This document shows positions 2,004 to 13,322 of a DNA stretch of 13,391 nucleotides, piece by piece; the first letter of the stretch is position 1; each line of letters opens with the position of its first letter. Source of the stretch: a bacterium (GTDB lineage: Bacteria > Zhuqueibacterota > Zhuqueibacteria > Oceanimicrobiales > Oceanimicrobiaceae). The position numbers and the translations under genes were made by a program. The stretch is taken from contig JBHHXN010000144.1 of the NCBI GenBank assembly GCA_046757025.1, forward strand, positions 1-13,391. The letters run 5' to 3'. Below the pieces are notes generated by a model. The model was not told the DNA's origin, made no database searches, and saw only the letters and a program-made list of their open reading frames with translations.

Positions 2004-2957
2004 TTAGAAGGTTTTAATTTTACCTTTGTGCACTCGTTTTAACAAATCTTGCAATCGTCTGTGCACACCTTTGATCTCAAATTCCGTCAATCCGAATTGC
2101 ACAACGTTATTAGAAATTCGAACGCCTTTTTTAGGATCGAGATTTTCAGTGTGTTGGACTTCCACCAGGTTGTCGCCTTTAAAAGTGAACTGAGCGACGA
2201 CCCCCAGGGTTTTTTGCAGGTCTTGCAGTGTGATTTTTCGAAGTTTTTCCACCGTCGCCGCGGGGAGTTTTTTTACTCGCATGTCCTGCCATTCATAACC
2301 GCGATCACTCTTGATGTTGTTGAATGCCATGCCGTTGTCAACAGCAAATACTCTCAAATTGGCGGGGTCAGTGGAGATCAAAAAATTACCCACGTTTGAG
2401 TCGCTGTGTTTGATTAAATAAGAAAGTATGTTCATATTCCCCAAATGCATAGCATAATATTCGTTGGTTTTGAATAATTTCTTGTCGTAGATATTTTTGT
2501 TGGTGACGTTTTCCAACCAGTATTGCAAAACAAATAGCACACAGGGAATTTTCTTAAAGGTCGGTTTCACATTGGGTTCGATTTCACGGTATTTCTCGAT
2601 GGAAAAAAAACGCGCAACCGTCGGAGGAACCACATAATATTCAGGCTGCAGAAACAGCTTCTGCAGCTGGTAAGCGGCTATTTCATAGCGCGGCTGATTG
2701 TTCACGGCCTGGCCTTTAGAGGGACCGCGCTTCCACTTCACGCGCATGTAAACCCCATCCTGCCACTTGATAATCATTTGTTTGGTGATATCCCCTTTAA
2801 ATCGCGAGTCTCTTTTGCGAAAAATATCAAAGGGCTCGTACTTCAAGCGCTGCTCAATATCGGCAATGGGAAATTGAATGTTGTTATCCTGCGCAATAAC
2901 CGGGGCGAAATTGCTGAGGATAAACTTGCTGATTATAAGGATAATAAACGTTCTCAT
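2004..2957 (-). CDS. Exported atypical kinase-fold protein (PI3/PI4K type II / FAM20 / HipA-like superfamily); frame is open upstream to 3134
   Basis: From Met at 2957: signal peptide MRTFIILIISKFILSNFAPVIA|QD. Then, in kinase order: RVKWK (beta3 Lys), RYEIAAYQL (alphaC Glu), VVPPTV, LQYW (hinge), SYLIKHSDSNVGNFLI (catalytic D-x4-N) and AVDNGMAF (DFG equivalent). The CDS is convincing; the kinase assignment is motif-based inference. Confidence 0.7.
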   Translation of the reverse strand: MRTFIILIISKFILSNFAPVIAQDNNIQFPIADIEQRLKYEPFDIFRKRDSRFKGDITKQMIIKWQDGVYMRVKWKRGPSKGQAVNNQPRYEIAAYQLQKLFLQPEYYVVPPTVARFFSIEKYREIEPNVKPTFKKIPCVLFVLQYWLENVTNKNIYDKKLFKTNEYYAMHLGNMNILSYLIKHSDSNVGNFLISTDPANLRVFAVDNGMAFNNIKSDRGYEWQDMRVKKLPAATVEKLRKITLQDLQKTLGVVAQFTFKGDNLVEVQHTENLDPKKGVRISNNVVQFGLTEFEIKGVHRRLQDLLKRVHKGKIKTF

Positions 2958-3294
2958 CGGACTTTTTATTTTGAAATACCGCGATTCAAAAAAAAGGTTG
3001 GAATATTGGACCATTTGACGCTTTTCCGCAGACCCAAACTGAGCGGTCGAATCATCCGAATCCATCACTTCCCGAAAAGCCTCATTTTTAAGAAATCCTC
3101 CGGTGGAAAATGGTTTACGTTCATCGCTTATCATTTCATCCCAAATCTAACCAAATTTTGCCAATTTGAAAAATGCTTCGAAAAACACACTAAACAGGCT
3201 GCCAACTTGAGCAACCCAAATCTGCTGGAAGTCGAGAAGGAAGGTATGTAAAAGAAAATTATCGAGATGTCAGCAATTTAGATTATCGCTTGAT

Positions 3295-3618: not shown

Positions 3619-6600
3619 CTATTTCAGAATCAGCATACGGCGAGTGGCTTGAAAGTCTTGCACTTTTATTTGATAAAGATAAATTCCAGACGGCGCCGGC
3701 AATCCGCGGGAATCACGCCCATCCCATTCAACCTCATATTGGCCCGGGACCATGGATTCATTGAGCAATTCTCGCACCAACTGTCCCAGAATATTATGAA
3801 TTCTCAATTCTACCTTTGCCTTGTTTTGCAAAACAGACGGAATCACAAATCGAATTTTGGTAGAGGGGTTGAACGGATTTGGATAATTTTGTTCAAGCGT
3901 GAAAACATCTGGCAAAGTCAATTGGGTTTGTTTATAAACAGGCAACAAAAAGCGGCTCCCGTTCATCAATCTCTCTGGCGCCAAAAAAGCGATTCCCACA
4001 ATTTTATCCTCCTTGCCCGTTAAGCGCGAAAGACTTTTACCGATTCCCGAATTAGGGTCGATTTTGATCAATTGCTTTTTCCCGGCCCCTGCAAATCCAA
4101 ACAACTTTCCATCGGGAGCAAAGGCAAGAGATTCAACGTGATCAAAGCCGATCTTGTGAGGCCGGTACGCCGATGTGTTGGTTCGACTCGAAGTATTGAT
4201 GACAACCAACCTCCCGGATTTGGTATCGACTCCATAAAGCACGGGCTTCCGATTGATTGAAAAAGCCAAACCACGAATATCTTTAAATCCCAGCCTTTTT
4301 ATTCTTTTCACCCGGCCGGAGGCGCGGTCGATCTTCACCAGTTCTTGCTCGTCATCATCAACACCATACAGTTCCCCCGTCACCGGATTCACCGCCAGAC
4401 TTTTGATGTCTTCTATTTCAATCCTTGTGAGATAGGTTGCCGTGACGCCTGTAGAAGAAGCCTTTCTAATATTCGCACTTTTTATTTTATAAATGGTGCC
4501 GTCGCTTTTGCGGGAAAGAAGGAGCACACAATTGGTTATAGGATCCCAGGTCATCGCCACGATTTTCTTTATTTTTTTCTTTTTCTTATCTTTGAAAAAA
4601 ATCGGACCAACTCGGGAGACGACAGGATTACTCGTGTGGAAGTCGATCTTTACCAGTTCGGTTTTATCTTCGGTGATGGCGTACAGAACGTTCGCTTGTG
4701 ACGATTGTTGTGGAAACCTTTTAAAGATCATGGTGTCGCTGCATGTCGAAACCGTACCCCAACTATCGGTAAATTTGGCTTCCAAATGAATCGTATTGGC
4801 GCCCATAGTCAATGGGATGATCGCCATCAGCGTATCCTTGACGGCAACGGCGCTGGTGCCATTGAATTTCCCCTGGGCTTGAATAGGCGGTACGCCGCCG
4901 CTGACTTTGAACACTCCCATGACTTTAATGCGAGCGTCCCGGATGATGGTGCCCGGTTCCGGCGGTAGAAATTCAACCTCACAAATCAGGGGCTTAGGTT
5001 TACGAAAAACGATTACCGAATCTGTGCAAACGGTCTGAGTGCCGCATTCGTCCAGAATGGAACAAGTAACGGTAAATCGGTTTTCTCCGAATTCCAAAGG
5101 CGCCAAAACCGAAAAGGCGTTTTGCGAAAGAGCCACAGATTTGCCATTTATTTGACACGAGACCGAAAAGGGCGGCTGCCCCCCTGACACTTCGATCCGT
5201 CCGCCGATGCGGATGCTTTCGTTGCTGATGGTGGTGTCGCCCTGTGGCGTTGAGATGGTCACAGCGCAAGCAAGAGGCTGAGGTCGATTTAGGATAATAG
5301 ATTGGTTAGAGGTCTTACTGACGCCGCGGGTATCCCCCACCGTGCTGTTCACGACCACTTGATTTTCTCCCGGAACGAGCGCGATGGTCGCGCTGAACAG
5401 GTTTCCCACTACTGTGGCGGGGACGCCATTCACTTCACAGGCGATAGAGTATGGTGGAATACCGCCATGGATGACAATTTCACCTGTTACGGTGCTATTT
5501 TCAGCACAGATGAGCTCGCCATTTTGAGGCGACGTTATCGTGGTTTGCATCGTCAGCTCCTCAAACGCGAAGCCTGTTAACTCGACGGTCACGATCTGCT
5601 CATCAGGGTCGTTGCTGGTTATTTCAAGCTCGGCTTTTTTAACGCCCGGTGCGTCTGGCTGGAATCGGATTTCGAAACTGGAGCTGGCGCCCGGCGGCAA
5701 AATGAACAAAGCATTCGCGGAGAGCAGCTCAAACTGGCTGGCATCGCTGCCGGACAGGTTCAAGACATTCACTTGAAGCGCTGCCACGCCGTCGTTGCTG
5801 ACCACAAAGGTTTTTGTTTCCACGCTTCCAATCAGCACCTTCCCGAAATCGTGATTTGCCGGATCCACCGTGATATCTGGTTGTAGCGGCGAAATGCCCT
5901 CTCCGGACAAGGTGACATTCAAGATGGCCTGATCGGGATCGTTGCTGAAAATCTGTAAATTGGCTTTTTTCGAACCTAAATCAGTCGGTTGAAAAATGAC
6001 GATGAGATTATGGCTTTCGCCTGGTATCAAAGTGATCATGCCGGAATTCGTTACGATTTTGAACTGATCGGAATAGGCACCAGAAAGGCTGATGGAATTC
6101 ACCGTTAAATCGGCTAAACCGCTGTTGGTAATGATAAAATTCTTGGTCGCCAGTGTACCAACCACCACAAGCCCATAATCATGACTGCTTGGACTAACCA
6201 CCATTTTGGGCTGCGGTAACGGCAGGCCCGTACCGGTCAATCCAATCTCTGCCAATGGGGTATCGGGATCGTTGCTGGCGACTTGCAAACTGGCTGTTTT
6301 TACGCCTTCCGATGCCGGCCGGAAGCGAATATCGAGCTTTTCGCTTTCCCCCGGCATCAGCGTGAACGACGTTCGACCGGACAGGAGCGCGAACTGGTCT
6401 AAATTTGCACCGGCTAAGCTCACGTTATTTACCAACAAATCGGCGCTGCCGTTGTTGGAAATGACAAACGATTTTGACGCAACGGATCCCTGCCTCACCT
6501 CGCCAAAGTCGTAATCAGCGGGCTGCACCGCGATGTTCGGCGCCGGCGCCGGCACGCCATTGCCCGTGAGCATGATACCAAACGTGGCCTGATCCGGATC

Positions 6601-7695
6601 GTTGCTGAATATCTGCAAACTAGCGGATTTATTGCCAATAGAAAGCGGCTTGAAACTGATGGTAAAACTCTGGCTGTCTCCGGATGCCAGGGTGATCAAC
6701 GTGCCAACGCTTTCAATTGTGAATTGATCTTTATCGACGCCGACAATCTTAGCGGCATTTAATACCAGGTCCGCGGTGCCATCATTGGATATGATAAATG
6801 TTTTAAAAACAATGGCGCCAACCATGACGTCGCCAAAGTCATAGGCTGCCGGCTGAACCAGGATATTGGGTTGCGGTTTTGGCTTACCGGCACCGTCCAG
6901 GTTTACATTAACCGTTGCTTGATCCGGATCGTTGCTGGTAATTTGAAGCACGGCGCTTTTTAAGCCGTCGGAGTCGGGATGGAATCGGACAGAAATATTT
7001 TGACTTTGCCCGGGAGCAAGAGTAAACGGAGATACGGTGGCTGCAAAGCCGAATTGATCGGAATCCATACCCACGATGCGGACGTCGCTCACTTGCAGAT
7101 CTGCGGTACCGCTATTTGAAATAACAAACGACTGCATGGCGCTGGAACCGACTTCCACCTCGCCAAAATCGTGCGAGATCGGCGTCACATCGATGGCTGG
7201 AACTCTGGCCGGCAGCACGGTAAAATGGCCGTTGGTTATTTCTGCCGGAGGGTCGCCCGTATTAAAAATAAATCCGATAAATTTTAAAATGGTGGAAGCA
7301 CCGGGTTGTCCGACCACATCAAAGATAATATTTATCAAGGTTCCGCTGCCGCTGAGTTCCGAATGACCGAATACCGACACGATCAGCTCCCCGTCCAACG
7401 TATTATCGACGATGGGCGGATCAAACGGTTCAGCCAGCGTGCCGGCTGTGGAGGCGCCGACGCCGCGCAAAACCGTTTTATCGAACACGATGACCATCTG
7501 GAATGACAAAACTTTGCCACCCGCAAGCTCCCCAACCGTAATGGGGACGCGGACGGTGGTGCCAGCCTCGCCCGCTGCCGAACCTGGCAGAGAGACTTTC
7601 ACTGGCGGACTGGACTGCAAAACTTGTGCAAAAGCATCACCACAAAATAAGAGTGAAACCAGGGCCAAAAAGAAGAAAATTCTGCAAGAATTCAT
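3619..7695 (-). CDS. Large secreted modular protein (~1358 aa): cohesin-like domain, 5x choice-of-anchor-D/ASH-type Ig repeats, 3 Ig-like repeats, propeller-like region, FlgD-Ig/T9SS type A C-terminal sorting domain
   Basis: Start reassigned to ATG 7695 because GGAGGTG lies 5 nt upstream and a signal peptide follows (MNSCRIFFFLALVSLLFCGDAFA|Q). Cohesin-like TVRVPITV...FQMVIVFDKTVL...SGSGTLINIIFDV. Five DFG/DYG...N-x-G...SNDPD repeats. The C-terminus LEQNYPNPFNPSTKIRF...NILGQLVREL...WDGRDSRG...SGIYLYQI...RRMLILK is the typical secretion C-terminal signature. Confidence 0.9.
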   Translation of the reverse strand: MNSCRIFFFLALVSLLFCGDAFAQVLQSSPPVKVSLPGSAAGEAGTTVRVPITVGELAGGKVLSFQMVIVFDKTVLRGVGASTAGTLAEPFDPPIVDNTLDGELIVSVFGHSELSGSGTLINIIFDVVGQPGASTILKFIGFIFNTGDPPAEITNGHFTVLPARVPAIDVTPISHDFGEVEVGSSAMQSFVISNSGTADLQVSDVRIVGMDSDQFGFAATVSPFTLAPGQSQNISVRFHPDSDGLKSAVLQITSNDPDQATVNVNLDGAGKPKPQPNILVQPAAYDFGDVMVGAIVFKTFIISNDGTADLVLNAAKIVGVDKDQFTIESVGTLITLASGDSQSFTISFKPLSIGNKSASLQIFSNDPDQATFGIMLTGNGVPAPAPNIAVQPADYDFGEVRQGSVASKSFVISNNGSADLLVNNVSLAGANLDQFALLSGRTSFTLMPGESEKLDIRFRPASEGVKTASLQVASNDPDTPLAEIGLTGTGLPLPQPKMVVSPSSHDYGLVVVGTLATKNFIITNSGLADLTVNSISLSGAYSDQFKIVTNSGMITLIPGESHNLIVIFQPTDLGSKKANLQIFSNDPDQAILNVTLSGEGISPLQPDITVDPANHDFGKVLIGSVETKTFVVSNDGVAALQVNVLNLSGSDASQFELLSANALFILPPGASSSFEIRFQPDAPGVKKAELEITSNDPDEQIVTVELTGFAFEELTMQTTITSPQNGELICAENSTVTGEIVIHGGIPPYSIACEVNGVPATVVGNLFSATIALVPGENQVVVNSTVGDTRGVSKTSNQSIILNRPQPLACAVTISTPQGDTTISNESIRIGGRIEVSGGQPPFSVSCQINGKSVALSQNAFSVLAPLEFGENRFTVTCSILDECGTQTVCTDSVIVFRKPKPLICEVEFLPPEPGTIIRDARIKVMGVFKVSGGVPPIQAQGKFNGTSAVAVKDTLMAIIPLTMGANTIHLEAKFTDSWGTVSTCSDTMIFKRFPQQSSQANVLYAITEDKTELVKIDFHTSNPVVSRVGPIFFKDKKKKKIKKIVAMTWDPITNCVLLLSRKSDGTIYKIKSANIRKASSTGVTATYLTRIEIEDIKSLAVNPVTGELYGVDDDEQELVKIDRASGRVKRIKRLGFKDIRGLAFSINRKPVLYGVDTKSGRLVVINTSSRTNTSAYRPHKIGFDHVESLAFAPDGKLFGFAGAGKKQLIKIDPNSGIGKSLSRLTGKEDKIVGIAFLAPERLMNGSRFLLPVYKQTQLTLPDVFTLEQNYPNPFNPSTKIRFVIPSVLQNKAKVELRIHNILGQLVRELLNESMVPGQYEVEWDGRDSRGLPAPSGIYLYQIKVQDFQATRRMLILK
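5551..7200 (-). repeat. Five tandem 330-nt (110-aa) intragenic Ig-domain repeats
   Basis: The SNDPD-encoding motif (g[a/g]tcgttgctg on +) recurs in 10-nt blocks starting at 5601, 5931, 6261, 6591 and 6921, an exact 330-nt period. Repeats begin PAIDV, PNILV, PNIAV, PKMVV, PDITV. Confidence 0.9.
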
Positions 7696-7700
7696 GGAAT

Positions 7701-7707
7701 CACCTCC
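7701..7707 (-). promoter_or_regulatory. Shine-Dalgarno site (GGAGGTG) for the large secreted protein
   Basis: + strand cacctcc at 7701-7707, 5 nt from the ATG at 7695. Confidence 0.85.
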
Positions 7708-7856
7708 AAAGAAACAAAAATGTTTGATATTCAAAAACGTCAACTATAAAAATACACAAACATTTTTGGATGACGGAATTTTTACGACCTTGCTGTTTTA
7801 TTTACCTTTCATAAAATATGACGTCTTTCGAATCTTAATTGGTATTTTTAGCTAAA

Positions 7857-8017
7857 TAGTGTTTGAACAGAGACTCGAGAAATGCGCGATTTAAGAGCCT
7901 CTTCGCGAAGGTGTCCCTTCGACAAAGCTCAGGACAAGCCCCCCACCGAGCCAGGCAGGAATTCACCATCGGCCAGGAGACCTTCGGGAAGATCGGACCA
8001 TTATCGTTCAGGCACTA
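7857..8017. mobile_element. ~160-bp MITE-like element with terminal inverted repeats, flanking direct repeat and internal palindromes
   Basis: tagtgtttgaac (7857-7868) / gttcaggcacta (8006-8017) is 10/12 inverted. The direct repeat ctaaatag occurs at 7852-7859 and 8015-8022. An internal inverted repeat at 7900-7916 / 7976-7992 is 15/17. It is a GC-rich patch in AT-rich intergenic DNA. Confidence 0.6.
7916..7939. repeat. REP-like extragenic repeat (CCTTCGACAAAGCTCAGGACAAGC)
   Basis: Resembles the widespread CTTCGAC(AA)GCTCAGGACAGGC / GCCTGTCCTGAGC..GTCGAAGG extragenic repeat type (recognised from memory, not searched). Confidence 0.6.
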
Positions 8018-8157: not shown

Positions 8158-10482
8158 TCAGCATTTATGCGAAGCATATTCCGGTATATTTTTGTCCAGC
8201 TCTTTTCGCACCGCGGCAGCCAGAGCGTTGAGTGAAATGGGTTTAGCCACAAATTCACCCGCGCCGATTCTCAAAGCGTTTTTCACTCGTTTGGATTTGG
8301 CATAACCAGACAAAACTATGGCCCTTTGCTTGGGTTGAATTTTTAAAATTCGTTTGTAGGTTTCGGCGCCGTCGATGCCATCCATGACCATATCCAGAAT
8401 TAACAGGTCCTGTGGATTCTCTTTCACAAATTCCACAGCCTGTTCACCACTTTGCACCGTGTGAATTCTGTAACCCAACCGTTTAAGTAGTTGTGTCGTG
8501 ACGCGGCGTTGAATCGGATCGTCATCCACAACCAATATCGACTCGTTTCCACCCGAGATATTTTCCACAGTTTTGGCAACATCCTCCTGAATCTCTCTCG
8601 AAACCGGGAAATAGAGACAAAAGGTTGTGCCGCTGCCCACCTCGCTTTCAACCGTGATGTAGCCTTTGTGATCTTCGATGATACCGTGCACGACACTCAG
8701 TCCCAAGCCCGAACCGCGCATACGATCCATGGTTTTGGTGGTAAAAAACGGATCGAATATTTTATCGAGCAGCTCGGGTTTGATTCCGTGCCCCGTGTCG
8801 GAAATGGCGAGCTTTACATATTCTCCGCGCTTTACGGTCTGATAGCCATGTAATGGCCAATCGAGATATTCATTGGAGGTTTGAATGGCGATGGTGCCGT
8901 GGTTGTGAATGGCTTCTATGGCGTTTATCAATAAATTGGTGATGGCTCGGGTTAACTGAGCAGCGCCGCCTTTGATGGTAAACAACTCTTTTTCCAGTGA
9001 TTTGTGTAGGGCTATTTTTTTTGACCAATCCATAGTGCAAACCACGTTTTGCACCAACTCATTCAGGTCGATGGCATCCATAGTGTAATGACCGCGACGA
9101 CCTAAGGCCAACAGTTGCTGGTTGATATCTGCGATCTTTCTAGCGGCAATTTCCATTTCATCCACCATTTCTACCACCGGATGTTCTTCAGGTAAATCCT
9201 CGCGGATTAACGTCGGATACGCAGCCAGAGGTCCCAGCAGATTGTTAAAGTCGTGGGCGATCTGGCCGGCAATGCGACCGGCGGCTTCCAATCGTTGTGC
9301 CCGCTCTAACTCTTCCTGAAGCCGCTTGCGCTCTGTAATGTCCCGGCAAATCACGCGGATAGTTTGTAACTTACCGCTTTCAGATTTTAACAGTGAAAAT
9401 TCCTTGCTCACCCATACGGTTCGACCGCTTTTGTGAATCAGGCGTGATTCAATGTTTTTAGGCGGTTGTCCGGTTGTTTGAATTTGGTAAAAATATTTTT
9501 CAGTTTGCGGTCGGTCGCGATGATACATCAATTGTTGAATGGGCTTGCCGATGACTTCTGCGGTGGTATAACCCAGCTCCTTTAAACCACGTTGATTAAA
9601 ATCGACAATCGTGCCTTCGGGATCTAAAATGATGTACATGTCAGGGGCGTTATCAAACAGGTCTCGAAACCGCTCCTCGCTATGACGCAGCGCTTTCTCC
9701 ACTTTTTTGCGCACATCCAGCTCCTGTTGCAGTTTTTCAGCCTGGCATTCCAGCTTGTGGTGAGCGAGTTGCAAAGCGGTATCTCTTTCCTGGATGTGAC
9801 TCAGCATTTCGTTAAATCGTTCAGTCAAATAGCCTAATTCGTCTTCGTTGAACTTTTTGGCGCGAATGGAGAAGTCTTTTTTCAAGGAAACTTTTTTTGC
9901 CATTTTCGCGAGATGCAAAATGGGTTCGGAAATAATTCGCTGAAGATTGGCTGCCATAATGAATGCCGTTAACGCAGAAAGACCCAGCACCAGGGCAATT
10001 ATGGCTGCGTAGCGTTTAAGCCGCATATAAAACTCTTCCAGGTCCGATTGGATGTAAAGCGTGCCGATTTGTTCTCCATCCAGGATGATTTCATGAAATA
10101 AATTTAATCGACGATTTTCAAAAAAAGAGCGCGGATTTTGTACAGGTGGCAGCGTCACTTTTTCGCCGATATCCTTTCGAGCATAAGAAGCGAAATGCAC
10201 GCCATCCCGCGAGTAAATACACGCAGTAGTGATATTCTCCTTCGCTACCAGGGCTGCCAGCATTTCAGTTGCTTCATCCGCACGGTCAAAGCTGATGGCG
10301 GCCGTACTGTTCGTTCCAATGATTTCAGCCAGAATGTGCAGGTCGTGAACCATGGCATCCTTAAAGGAAATGAGATCAAAAATTATGAATCCCAAACAGG
10401 CCAAAAACACCGCTACCCCGCTGATAAGCAGGATAATCAGCGTCAGTTTTTTCTGAATGGAAAAATCATGCATAAATCTCAT
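8158..10482 (-). CDS. Membrane hybrid sensor histidine kinase (CHASE8-HAMP-PAS-HisKA-HATPase_c-REC)
   Basis: TM1, a YfiN-like periplasmic CHASE8 motif (STAAISFDRADEATEMLAAL...ACIYSRDGVHFASY), TM2, HAMP (EPILHLAK...DELGYLTERFNEML), PAS (SEERFRDLFDNAPD...RDITERK), H-box AHDFNNLL, N/G1/F/G2 boxes (NAIEA, DTGHGI, FDPFFTTK, GSGLGL), and a REC domain (VVDDD, ILDMVM, VLSG, AKP). ATG 10482 is preferred to TTG 10488; it lies 2 nt after the upstream stop. Confidence 0.93.
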   Translation of the reverse strand: MRFMHDFSIQKKLTLIILLISGVAVFLACLGFIIFDLISFKDAMVHDLHILAEIIGTNSTAAISFDRADEATEMLAALVAKENITTACIYSRDGVHFASYARKDIGEKVTLPPVQNPRSFFENRRLNLFHEIILDGEQIGTLYIQSDLEEFYMRLKRYAAIIALVLGLSALTAFIMAANLQRIISEPILHLAKMAKKVSLKKDFSIRAKKFNEDELGYLTERFNEMLSHIQERDTALQLAHHKLECQAEKLQQELDVRKKVEKALRHSEERFRDLFDNAPDMYIILDPEGTIVDFNQRGLKELGYTTAEVIGKPIQQLMYHRDRPQTEKYFYQIQTTGQPPKNIESRLIHKSGRTVWVSKEFSLLKSESGKLQTIRVICRDITERKRLQEELERAQRLEAAGRIAGQIAHDFNNLLGPLAAYPTLIREDLPEEHPVVEMVDEMEIAARKIADINQQLLALGRRGHYTMDAIDLNELVQNVVCTMDWSKKIALHKSLEKELFTIKGGAAQLTRAITNLLINAIEAIHNHGTIAIQTSNEYLDWPLHGYQTVKRGEYVKLAISDTGHGIKPELLDKIFDPFFTTKTMDRMRGSGLGLSVVHGIIEDHKGYITVESEVGSGTTFCLYFPVSREIQEDVAKTVENISGGNESILVVDDDPIQRRVTTQLLKRLGYRIHTVQSGEQAVEFVKENPQDLLILDMVMDGIDGAETYKRILKIQPKQRAIVLSGYAKSKRVKNALRIGAGEFVAKPISLNALAAAVRKELDKNIPEYASHKC

Positions 10483-10484
10483 GG

Positions 10485-11048
10485 TCAATTTTTCCCTTTA
10501 TGGTTCGAGTTTTCTACAATTCGCGCTAAATTCAACAATCTGGAGCTAATTTTTAAATGCGATCTTTCCGCGGCCTCAATATTGATGGCAAATCGCACTT
10601 TGTTATTTTGATTGAACAAGCGAATAACGCCGCCATTAACTGCAAAGTCGGGAGTTTCCCCAACAGTGAGAACATTGAATTCGCGAAGAATGGCCAGATT
10701 TTTTTTCATCCTCCTTCTTTCAGATGAGCTAATAAAAAGAAGATGACAGAATTCCCAGTCCTCGATTTTATCAAAACGTTTGATGACGATCTTTTTTCCT
10801 TTCACGGTTTTACCGGCGATCATTTCATCCAGGTCTGACCCAAAGGGGTCTCGACCCAGAATGCCAATAATTAACGGTTGAGTGGTATCCTCAACCACCT
10901 CCTTTGGCCAGTCCACAAATTTGGCAAAATTGTACAAAAACGCGGCTTTAATTTGATATTCCGTAACTCGTGCCCTGCGCAGATTCTGAGCGTGAGTGGC
11001 CGAACTGAATACAAAAAACAACAAAATAATTCTAAATACTTTATCCAT
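10485..11048 (-). CDS. yfiR: YfiR/HmsC family (DUF4154) periplasmic regulator
   Basis: Signal peptide (...SSATHA|Q) and family signatures EYQIKAAFLYNFAKFVDWP, IGILGRDPFG, CHLLFIS, LTVGE...F...GG.I, VRFAINIEAAERSHLKISSRLLNLA. It sits directly upstream of a CHASE8-HAMP sensor. The symbol denotes family membership, not proven orthology. Confidence 0.9.
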   Translation of the reverse strand: MDKVFRIILLFFVFSSATHAQNLRRARVTEYQIKAAFLYNFAKFVDWPKEVVEDTTQPLIIGILGRDPFGSDLDEMIAGKTVKGKKIVIKRFDKIEDWEFCHLLFISSSERRRMKKNLAILREFNVLTVGETPDFAVNGGVIRLFNQNNKVRFAINIEAAERSHLKISSRLLNLARIVENSNHKGKN

Positions 11049-11138
11049 TCACATTGCCTGAAAAACGAGGCGAACTTAATTCTCTGCTCAAATCGGTGAA
11101 ATTTTCCAAATTCGCAAGTTTTCAATTATCTTTACAGT

Positions 11139-13322
11139 CTAAAACTGCCAGGTTATTTTACTAAACACACTGCGTTGGACTTCACTGGCTTCGGTCCCGC
11201 TTACTGCCACCCGATTCGCTATATTGAGAATCTGGCTGTTTTCCGCATGGTGTTTTTGCAGCAAATTTTGTCCAACAACGGAAAAGATCAAACTTTCATT
11301 TAGTTTCCAATTAAAGCTTAAATCGGCCGTTAAATAGCTGTCAACCTCCTGCATGGGAAGCTCATCCACAAAGCGCAGGATGATATCAAAATTTATTCTT
11401 CGGCCAACATCAAACATCGAACGAACAAAAAATTGATGTCGCGGGCTCTGGCCTTCCATGCTTTCTCGGAAGCTGTCTATGCTGTTGTTTGGCCGATGAA
11501 GCTGCATATTCAGGTAGGAATAAGCTGCCATGAGCCGCCAATGATCGCGAACCTGCCAATTCAGCGCCATTTCAAAACCGTTGGTTTCGCCTTTGAGGTT
11601 ATTTTTAATGATAACAGGCAGAACGCGGCCGATATGGTCCCGGAACACCACACCGGGTTCGTCCGAGCGCAAATTAAAATAGCGATTGTGAAAAGCCGTC
11701 AGATCCAGTGCGATATCGTCGCCGGGCTGCACACGATACCCCAGCTCAAATGCCAGCATGTTTTCCGATTGATAATTCCGGTTACCGATCAACTTAGTGA
11801 AAATCGTCAGGCTCTCAGGAATGGTGGCTTCCAGCAACAGCTCGACATCGTGTTCACCACGAGAAGGCGAGCGCACCGCATGCGACACCGCACCCCAGAG
11901 GGAATGGCGTTCTTCCGGCTTCCAGTGCAGGCGCAGACTGGGCTGCAGCTCAAGGCCCGTGAAAGCATTGTGCTCGATTTTGGTTCCGAGGAAAAGACGC
12001 AAACGATCTCTAACCAGCGAGATTTCATCCTGGATAAACGCGCTGTACAGATTGAATTGGCGGCTGTCTGGACGCAGGTGAAAGGTAAAGTTGGAATCAA
12101 ATTTATCGGCAATAAAACGCCAGCCGGCGCCCCAGATAATTTCCTGACGCTCACCCCAAAAAAATCGGTGCTGGAAGTCCACATCAAAAGTCTGGATGGT
12201 GCCGTTCACCACCGGCTCTCTCCGCTTCACCAGGTCGTAGTAAACTTGCAAGGCTAGCTCTGAAAAATTGCTGAAACTGCGTTTCCAGCGCCCCAGCACA
12301 TTGCCGCCGCTAATGCCCGAGTCAAAATCGAATTTATTCTGGTAGGGCGGCACATTTGAATCGACAATGTTAAATCGTTGACCGATTTTGCCAGAATAGA
12401 TATCTCCCTGAACCGTTAAATTTTCATTGTTCGCCACATCCCAATCGATCCGAAATCCACTCCGAAAAATATGCCAGTCATCCGAAGTTTTGATGCCAGC
12501 CTCATCGACTAAGCTATCTACTTTTTGGAATTTAGCATAAACGCGATAATAAGCGTTATTGCCAATTCCGGCTCCATAACGGAAATGCCCAAACCCCAGG
12601 CGTTCGGTGCCCAAGCCAAAGCTGAACAACCCACCCTGAGTATCCATACAACTCTTGGAAAGTATGTTGATGATGCCATTGACTGCATTGGCGCCCCAAA
12701 GGGTTGCGCCCGGTCCGCGGATGATTTCGATGCTATGGATATCATCCAATAATTGTTCCAGCGTTTCCCAGGAGACGCCTGAAAATAATGGGGTGTAAAC
12801 ACTCCGGCCATCCATAAGCACCAGCAGTTTATTGGCAAACTGCCCGCTAATGCCGCGTGACACACCGCTAAAACCGCGGGAGGTGATGGCCCAGCTGCCA
12901 GCATCGTGCTGAGCCACTTGCATTCCAGGCACCATTCGCAATGCTCCGGGTACGTCCAGGTTGCCGCTGCGCTTCATATCCTCGTTGGTGATGATGTATG
13001 CCGCCGCCGGTGAATCAAATAACGTTTCAGGCCTTTTAAAAAGAGACGTGAATTCGATTTCCATGAGTTGCTCAGGGGATAATTCGATCAAACTGACAAT
13101 CTTATCGTTGTCGTTATGCAGACTCCCAGTCCAACAACCGAATAACATTGTGGTAATGAGAAACAGTGCCATAAAATGCCCTGATTTTTGTAAATAAGAA
13201 ATCTTGATTTTTATTTTACAAAAAAAATTATTTACAATTAACTGGATGACTAAATCAGAAAAAGCAAGCACTACCTGAACGACTTTTTGACCCAAAGGCT
13301 CTGTCATCAAATTTCTCCACAT
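11139..13322 (-). CDS. TonB-dependent outer-membrane receptor (plug + beta-barrel); true start uncertain (13322, 13307 or 13172)
   Basis: Plug motifs AAAYIITNEDMKRSG...ALRMVPG...RGF...NKLLVLMDGRSVY...IHSIEIIRGPGATLWGANAVNGIINI. The barrel region is amphipathic beta-rich, with GQNLL near the end and a C-terminal beta-signal KITWQF. Confidence 0.93.
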   Translation of the reverse strand: MWRNLMTEPLGQKVVQVVLAFSDLVIQLIVNNFFCKIKIKISYLQKSGHFMALFLITTMLFGCWTGSLHNDNDKIVSLIELSPEQLMEIEFTSLFKRPETLFDSPAAAYIITNEDMKRSGNLDVPGALRMVPGMQVAQHDAGSWAITSRGFSGVSRGISGQFANKLLVLMDGRSVYTPLFSGVSWETLEQLLDDIHSIEIIRGPGATLWGANAVNGIINILSKSCMDTQGGLFSFGLGTERLGFGHFRYGAGIGNNAYYRVYAKFQKVDSLVDEAGIKTSDDWHIFRSGFRIDWDVANNENLTVQGDIYSGKIGQRFNIVDSNVPPYQNKFDFDSGISGGNVLGRWKRSFSNFSELALQVYYDLVKRREPVVNGTIQTFDVDFQHRFFWGERQEIIWGAGWRFIADKFDSNFTFHLRPDSRQFNLYSAFIQDEISLVRDRLRLFLGTKIEHNAFTGLELQPSLRLHWKPEERHSLWGAVSHAVRSPSRGEHDVELLLEATIPESLTIFTKLIGNRNYQSENMLAFELGYRVQPGDDIALDLTAFHNRYFNLRSDEPGVVFRDHIGRVLPVIIKNNLKGETNGFEMALNWQVRDHWRLMAAYSYLNMQLHRPNNSIDSFRESMEGQSPRHQFFVRSMFDVGRRINFDIILRFVDELPMQEVDSYLTADLSFNWKLNESLIFSVVGQNLLQKHHAENSQILNIANRVAVSGTEASEVQRSVFSKITWQF

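Follow-up and report, generated by a model that had tools for sequence, protein, structure and literature searches.

A conserved N-terminal tail of a TonB-dependent receptor as a candidate docking element for a YfiR-like protein encoded beside a CHASE8 hybrid kinase

The receptor, YfiR-like protein and kinase genes

The stretch of DNA analysed here (13,391 nucleotides (nt); hereafter, the window) is an entire contig, JBHHXN010000144.1, of a bacterium of the family Oceanimicrobiaceae, and its minus strand carries 3 consecutive genes for a TonB-dependent receptor, a YfiR-like periplasmic protein and a CHASE8-containing hybrid histidine kinase (Table 1). We propose that the N-terminal tail of the receptor, which bears a conserved motif predicted to bind the YfiR-like protein, is the likely coupling element of this trio; the present copy is an ordinary one for its family. 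Open reading frames (ORFs) and Pfam matches confirmed the gene run and domains described in an earlier sequence-only reading, including the gaps of 90 nt between the receptor and YfiR-like genes (11049-11138) and 2 nt between the YfiR-like and kinase genes (10483-10484). The spacing suggests co-transcription of the 3 genes, each of which was found in 1 copy by genome-wide search. Scans of the trio for promoters and terminators returned matches at chance level only, and no RNA runs were listed; the window ends 69 nt upstream of the receptor gene, so that the promoter and any upstream gene lie outside it. No response regulator gene is encoded in the three-gene run.

The receptor matches positions 2-603 of the 604 in NF053590 (TOL_0244 family) with 619.4 bits against a cut-off of 645, the next family scoring 88. 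Its domains and structure model (predicted local distance difference test (pLDDT) 87, predicted template modelling score 0.89) show a plug inside a large beta-barrel with a C-terminal Phe, a fold matching PirA, PfeA, Cir and BtuB. Pfam searches (E ≤0.01) detected the plug, the barrel and one sub-cut-off porin stretch, and no STN domain. The YfiR-like protein scores 169 bits with NF053591 (TOL_0243 family; cut-off 125) and 36.4 bits with the true-YfiR model NF053586, under the cut-off of 85. It has the YfiR fold: its structure model (pLDDT 92) matched Pseudomonas aeruginosa YfiR in Foldseek with template modelling (TM) scores of 0.70-0.74 at 16-19% identity, and hhalign gave 97% with Escherichia coli YfiR.

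The kinase is built of a transmembrane segment, CHASE8 (PF17152, 61.5 bits, cut-off 27), a second transmembrane segment, HAMP, PAS, kinase and receiver domains, and scores 225 bits with NF053592 (cut-off 194). Its patch AAISF aligns with AAVVF of YfiN, a YfiR-binding site identified genetically (Malone 2012, PMC3375315), and 150 of 152 related sensors retain its Phe. No solved structure was matched by sequence to the CHASE8 region. The catalytic motifs are present (H410, the N, G1, F and G2 boxes, and receiver residues D697 and K747), and Pfam found no GGDEF domain in the protein, in line with the phosphorelay output put forward in the sequence-only reading. That output, however, is the least conserved part of the system, relatives carrying GGDEF, methyl-accepting chemotaxis protein (MCP) or several types of kinase domains, and it was already in print: YfiR-YfiN pairs lacking YfiB, with kinase, GGDEF/EAL or MCP outputs, are described in Malone 2012 (PMC3375315). 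The protein also resembles CckA models (262 against a cut-off of 1000), with all hybrid-kinase motifs present, and 4 other kinases of the genome share 53-55% identity with it over the PAS-kinase-receiver part.

Among relatives, YfiR-like genes, some very divergent, adjoin MCP-output sensors at 6 loci (L088, L102, L138, L254, L257 and L263). At another (L143, 6016-8739 and 2527-4647), a natural fusion of 907 amino acids lies near a motif-bearing receptor; it combines a YfiR domain with a long predicted coiled coil, a single membrane span, a kinase and a receiver, and it lacks CHASE8.

Table 1. Positions in the window of the three genes, of the elements mapped on their products and of neighbouring features
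Feature	Position	Strand	Description
TonB-dependent receptor gene	13322-11139	minus	727 amino acids; Plug PF07715 and barrel PF00593 (Pfam)
Lipobox-like LFGC	13134..13145	minus	receptor residues 60-63, 15 residues before the motif; called by eye
Docking motif	13044..13091	minus	receptor residues 78-93; acidic amphipathic helix, then strand at TonB-box position
YfiR-like periplasmic protein gene	11048-10485	minus	187 amino acids; PF13689 (DUF4154), 161 bits, cut-off 24.9
Predicted tail-binding groove	10527..10970	minus	helix 1 (27-44), strand start 148-152 and last helix 170-174 of the YfiR-like protein
Hybrid histidine kinase gene	10482-8158	minus	774 amino acids from ATG; CHASE8, HAMP, PAS, HATPase_c, receiver
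AAISF patch	10288..10302	minus	kinase residues 61-65; aligns with E. coli DgcN (YfiN) AAVVF
Intergenic repeat	7870-7995		REP- or MITE-like
Surface protein gene	3619-7743	minus	1374 amino acids
Gene without family match	2004-3134	minus	376 amino acids
Metallophosphoesterase gene	607-1941	minus	calcineurin-like

The docking motif and its predicted complex with the YfiR-like protein

The motif closely follows the signal peptide of the receptor and has, in alignments, the family consensus DLxxxSLEDLMNxxVTS. The tail is conserved yet unfolded when the receptor is modelled without a partner, with pLDDT <50 for model residues 1-14 and 19-21 (protein residues 75-95). Residues 88-93 occupy the position of the V-x-T-A-S-R stretch of the other receptors of this genome and differ from it in sequence; Phe residues are found in the TonB-box strand of this receptor branch. 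The Cys-Trp motif of the lipobox-like site is common to L002, L003, L004 and L201 and is not found in L005. A lipid anchor at this site would tether the receptor tail to the outer membrane, as YfiB is tethered.

Residues 27-182 of the YfiR-like protein and residues 74-105 of the receptor, each with a 76-row alignment, were modelled as a complex. The model scored 0.80, compared to 0.02 for the best of 3 controls; runs agreed in at least 94% of contacts, and the partner pLDDT was at least 65. This mark was reached by 116 of 157 solved complexes and by 2 of 215 mismatched pairs, counts that apply only approximately here, as own alignments were used. The segment that the sequence-only reading had singled out as the site to test, LIELSPEQLMEIE, proves to be the conserved motif; binding of this segment to the YfiR-like protein is supported by the model. 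In the modelled interface, L81, P83, L86 and M87 of the tail lie between helix 1 (I33, A36, F37 and N40) and the last helix (L171 and L174), while E88-F91 run along N149-R152. No solved complex resembling this model was found among known structures.

TOL_0243 displays the same helix 1 pattern as the YfiR-like protein. The invariance of helix 1 in L002-L081 was not used as evidence, being partly built in by the search pattern. Five pairs with truncated receptors and 1 duplicate YfiR pairing were dropped from 81 when the alignments were paired. Pro151 of the YfiR-like protein accompanies Leu or Phe at tail position 87 in 20 of 20 pairs (Met occurs in 77 of the other 108), a pattern that maybe reflects one or two events and was left uncounted. 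Tandem double YfiR-like domains occur within one protein in L128, L129, P0004 and P0005. A fusion search among longer proteins gave 13 hits; the receptor-YfiR and YfiR-CHASE8 fusions (P0008, P0010 and also L079) were set aside, since each is known from one record with an unusual junction and probably arose by a frameshift or read-through error.

Distribution of the trio and of the motif

The sequence-only reading had surmised that the arrangement is not unique and had suggested neighbourhood statistics for DUF4154. In the 80 best GTDB loci, 73 of the 81 YfiR-like ORFs have a receptor within 700 nt, 69 have a CHASE8-type sensor and 62 have both. For the full set of 152 YfiR-like ORFs from loci selected by YfiR, many of which were chosen for lacking a motif hit, the corresponding numbers are 103, 113 and 77. 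The receptor/YfiR-like/CHASE8 grouping is not due to chance. The trio is catalogued and widespread, with NCBIfam models for all 3 parts (NF053590, NF053591 and NF053592) and carriers including KSB1, Acidobacteriota, Verrucomicrobiia, Nitrospirota and delta-, alpha- and betaproteobacteria, with Thalassolituus oleivorans and Aromatoleum evansii among those in culture; YfiR-like genes were present in 153 of 717 sampled genomes.

The motif follows the same neighbourhood. Among complete receptors adjacent to YfiR-like genes, in loci chosen by the YfiR-like protein and not by the motif, 76 of 81 have a motif score of at least 20; of the remaining 5, 3 score 15-17, one ORF is frameshifted and one is without the motif. 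Receptors of only approximately 20% identity share it. In the genome under study, the motif is found in 1 of 33 receptor-like ORFs: a hidden Markov model of the motif gave 34.1 bits for the receptor and 6.3 bits for the next of 12,486 ORFs, and by simple scoring the other 32 receptor-like ORFs reach ≤19, the best of them through a similar sequence within the plug. A conserved part of the plug that precedes the RGP motif (approximately 12725-12770) has a weak resemblance to the tail motif and yields false matches of up to 19-22 on simple scoring. Across the 717 genomes, in 4 samples of 145, 220, 201 and 151, PF13689 was detected in 83 of 88 genomes with the motif (counted at E ≤0.01) and in 70 of 629 without it; genome G366 was left out of the motif/PF13689 scoring. 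In the phylum of the window, a PF13689 hit is located no more than 6 kb away for 43 of the 72 motif hits. Of 20 regions around the remaining hits, 5 contain a divergent YfiR-like gene that had escaped the genome search, and 11 extend to the end of a contig. In one genome, G169, there are 10 YfiR-like genes and 9 hits to the motif, located on different contigs. No motif match was obtained in E. coli K-12, a carrier of YfiBNR. A search with the motif profile returned 4709 clusters at E ≤0.001; those listed are mostly short and probably fragments.

L084 (3030-19443) holds an almost tandem array of 6 motif-bearing receptors, flanked by a CHASE8-type kinase on one side and by another kinase on the other; the 20 kb fetched contain no YfiR-like gene. 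In L157, L159 and L180, receptors adjoining YfiR-like genes have a variant motif, which is separated from the TonB-box strand by an insertion of approximately 15 conserved residues.

The motif is also found on outer-membrane proteins unrelated to the receptors. The PF13557-like proteins of L145, L183 and L263 carry it, and in each case their gene immediately precedes those for a YfiR-like protein and a CHASE8-type sensor; those of L145 and L183 are 73% identical (one event), and that of L263, from another phylum sample, is 41% identical. Six PF13557-like relatives (L184-L189) have neither the motif nor a YfiR-like gene in the DNA fetched, which for 3 of them includes little or no downstream sequence. 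In L254, a protein of 434 amino acids with no Pfam family, porin-like by its C-terminal aromatic ending only, bears the motif and is encoded in the same position, immediately before a YfiR-like gene and a CHASE8-type sensor. The apparent movement of the motif between unrelated proteins beside YfiR-like genes is the best answer to the objection that it is simply inherited. We propose that the tail is a portable docking tag and that the output domain is swappable.

That objection belongs to an explanation in which the YfiR-like protein and the kinase would make up a sensor complete in itself; the receptor gene would serve uptake and only share its regulation, and the motif would be inherited within a receptor lineage. 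YfiR-like/CHASE8 pairs do occur without an adjacent receptor, a single origin of the motif among receptors is possible and covariation gave no enrichment; against these stand the complex model, which passes by a wide margin, the presence of the motif on 2 other kinds of proteins with YfiR-like neighbours and its absence from the other 32 receptor-like ORFs, and we consider this explanation very improbable.

Little is known about the family from published work. The only functional datum found is an approximately sevenfold increase of TOL_0244 on n-C28 (PMC6304351), and the TOL_0244 sequence, given in the supplement of Gregson 2018 (PMC6304351), carries the motif. OmpS of Alcanivorax dieselolei, described second-hand as 40.3% similar to TOL_0244 and needed for alkane sensing (PMC6304351, PMC5174103, PMC9788540), was rejected as a trio member, because ompS follows a pfeS-like kinase gene at a distance of 110 nt and no gene is listed in the interval. 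Nothing supports alkane sensing for the copy in the window. The term "TonB" is absent from the main text of Malone 2012 (PMC3375315).

Downstream of the trio, the window contains further features. The surface protein gene, 414 nt downstream of the kinase gene and on the same strand, encodes a cohesin domain, 5 choice-of-anchor D repeats and a C-terminus resembling FlgD-Ig and type IX secretion system (T9SS) domains. The intergenic repeat, similar to repetitive extragenic palindromic (REP) sequences or miniature inverted-repeat transposable elements (MITE), has 119 BLAST pieces genome-wide, 26 of them near full length. The protein of 376 amino acids has no Pfam or NCBIfam match, its nearest named Atlas clusters being PI3/PI4-kinase-like and Fam20C-like (TM 0.61-0.67); with the metallophosphoesterase encoded directly downstream, it may form an exported kinase-phosphatase pair of an unnamed family.

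Proposed partner switching and relationship to known systems

We favour, as the probable mechanism, partner switching, in which the YfiR-like protein would alternate between the CHASE8 domain of the kinase and the receptor tail, the latter interaction releasing repression. At rest, by analogy with YfiR-YfiN, the YfiR-like protein would occupy the AAISF patch and keep the kinase off. As in other TonB-dependent receptors, an extracellular ligand might alter access to the tail, which overlaps the TonB-box position. The tail helix would then pack into the groove that helix 1, strand 148-152 and the C-terminal-most helix form, holding the YfiR-like protein at the outer membrane, as predicted by the complex model and in line with the gene context. 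The freed kinase, judging from its motifs, could autophosphorylate and pass the phosphate through its own receiver to a regulator. The sign of the ligand step could be the reverse, in that TonB would drive the YfiR-like protein off the tail. The two may compete, because the modelled contacts extend into the beginning of the TonB-box strand.

In an alternative, the YfiR-like protein would be a bridge or scaffold, binding tail and CHASE8 at once through neighbouring faces or across a dimer and relaying a conformational or TonB-driven pull to the kinase. P. aeruginosa YfiR is a dimer (PMC4655355), the predicted tail site largely spares the YfiB pocket, and the L143 fusion, encoded beside a motif-bearing receptor, connects a YfiR domain to a membrane kinase through its long predicted coiled coil. 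However, the tail contacts V151 and L174, which align with positions 160 and 183 of P. aeruginosa YfiR, two of the three residues of the YfiN-binding patch proposed by Malone 2012 from a homology model (PMC3375315), and the solved relative works by sequestration; we consider the bridge unlikely.

Less likely still is import followed by sensing, as in PfeA-PfeS/PfeR, where PfeS senses enterobactin after import by PfeA (PMC8001512). In such a scheme, the YfiR-like protein would bind an imported small molecule and regulate the kinase, with the tail merely parking the protein near the pore or serving TonB. Both plug and barrel of the receptor are intact, 14 TonB_C matches occur in the genome, and YfiR, which binds vitamin B6 and tryptophan weakly (PMC4887326), resembles substrate-binding proteins. 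Import alone, however, does not account for a dedicated motif on unrelated non-TonB proteins beside YfiR-like genes, and it can be combined with partner switching.

Several points weigh against partner switching and against tail docking itself. Amphipathic helices dock easily, and unrelated proteins served as the model controls, rather than true YfiR or the N-termini of ordinary receptors. Covariation (mutual information with average product correction, MI-APC; 128 pairs) was not enriched at the predicted interface, with 3 of the top 25 pairs compared to 3.5 expected. The predicted tail site neighbours, rather than coincides with, the crystallographic YfiB site on YfiR (L166/I169/V176/P178/L181, E163 and R171; PMC4655355, PMC4887326); since it lies only beside that site, and the YfiN patch comes from a homology model, we infer the competition with CHASE8. 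A tree of 51 receptors, built by a quick method that leaves the deep branches open, needs 4 changes of the motif; a single origin is possible, and most receptor cases are therefore not independent. The genome counts are inflated by kinship, and 4 anchor genomes were chosen for having YfiR. In one sample, 20 of 40 motif hits lie >6 kb from, or off the contig of, any PF13689 hit; conversely, 70 of 153 PF13689 genomes have no motif hit, by a short-motif search that misses real cases. In 12 of 14 loci fetched for lacking a motif hit, no receptor or other carrier adjoins the YfiR-like gene, indicating that the YfiR-like/CHASE8 core can stand alone or use distant receptors. Finally, neither an experiment on any trio member nor a study of the trio or of the receptor tail was found in the literature, most subscription journals not being covered.

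Tentatively, the idea can be extended to a widespread, so far undescribed form of cell-surface signalling: a tag of approximately 16 residues at the TonB-box position may turn TonB-dependent receptors and other outer-membrane proteins into sensors that capture an adaptor and control kinases, cyclases or chemoreceptors without a sigma factor, with TonB and adaptor competing for one strand and, where a genome has many tagged receptors, with all of these feeding a common periplasmic network. Being portable, such a tag could serve to connect outer-membrane proteins with outputs of choice. With the motif, groove and residues now named, the link between receptor and sensor can be tested with a peptide and one small soluble protein. 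Such a link would likewise explain what stands in for YfiB where, as in many YfiR-YfiN-like pairs, it is missing, a gap left by Malone 2012. The trio is common in poorly studied phyla.

The closest known system is YfiBNR (YfiB-YfiR-YfiN, the latter also DgcN or TpbB) of P. aeruginosa and E. coli, whose kin include HmsCDE of Yersinia. Shared with it are the YfiR fold, the sensor with CHASE8 between 2 transmembrane segments followed by HAMP, with an AAxxF patch, and, by prediction, an outer-membrane partner that holds YfiR. Here, however, this partner would be the tail of a TonB-dependent receptor instead of YfiB, and the output is a kinase-receiver module instead of GGDEF. P. aeruginosa YfiR also has a Cys145-Cys152 disulfide (PMC4655355), whereas the YfiR-like protein has a single cysteine, C101, and hence lacks the pair; disulfide redox sensing of that kind was rejected. 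The sequence-only reading had assigned the YfiB role to the receptor, and the complex model and gene context support this assignment. A search of L001-L182 with E. coli YfiB found OmpA-like ORFs in 3 loci other than E. coli, none of them beside a YfiR-like gene, and none of the 8 OmpA-like ORFs of the genome is on this contig, of which 69 nt are visible upstream of the receptor gene. The accompanying notion that the trio was rewired from YfiBNR may have the direction backwards, as Malone 2012 (PMC3375315) makes the case for YfiR-YfiN as the ancestral core, to which YfiB was added later as an input.

The NCBIfam TOL_0243/TOL_0244 trio provides the best family-specific matches for all parts, two of which pass the cut-offs. 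The receptor falls below (619 vs. 645), and its branch has the lipobox-like signal and the Phe-rich TonB-box strand. The models supply names for the parts, and no accompanying mechanism was seen.

Textbook signalling by TonB-dependent receptors without import, as in FecIRA-type systems, relies on an STN domain on the receptor, an anti-sigma factor and an extracytoplasmic function (ECF) sigma factor. In both cases, a periplasmic N-terminal extension of the receptor reaches the regulator, here by prediction, but a motif of approximately 16 residues and a soluble adaptor take the place of STN and the sigma pair. Signalling without an ECF sigma pair, as anticipated from the sequence, agrees with the receptor lacking STN and with the gene run, which encodes no anti-sigma or ECF sigma factor: the 2 downstream genes are those for the YfiR-like protein and the kinase (69 nt being visible upstream). 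PfeA-PfeS/PfeR likewise links a TonB-dependent receptor to a histidine kinase (PMC8001512), but it has no periplasmic adaptor, whereas here a YfiR-like protein stands between the two.

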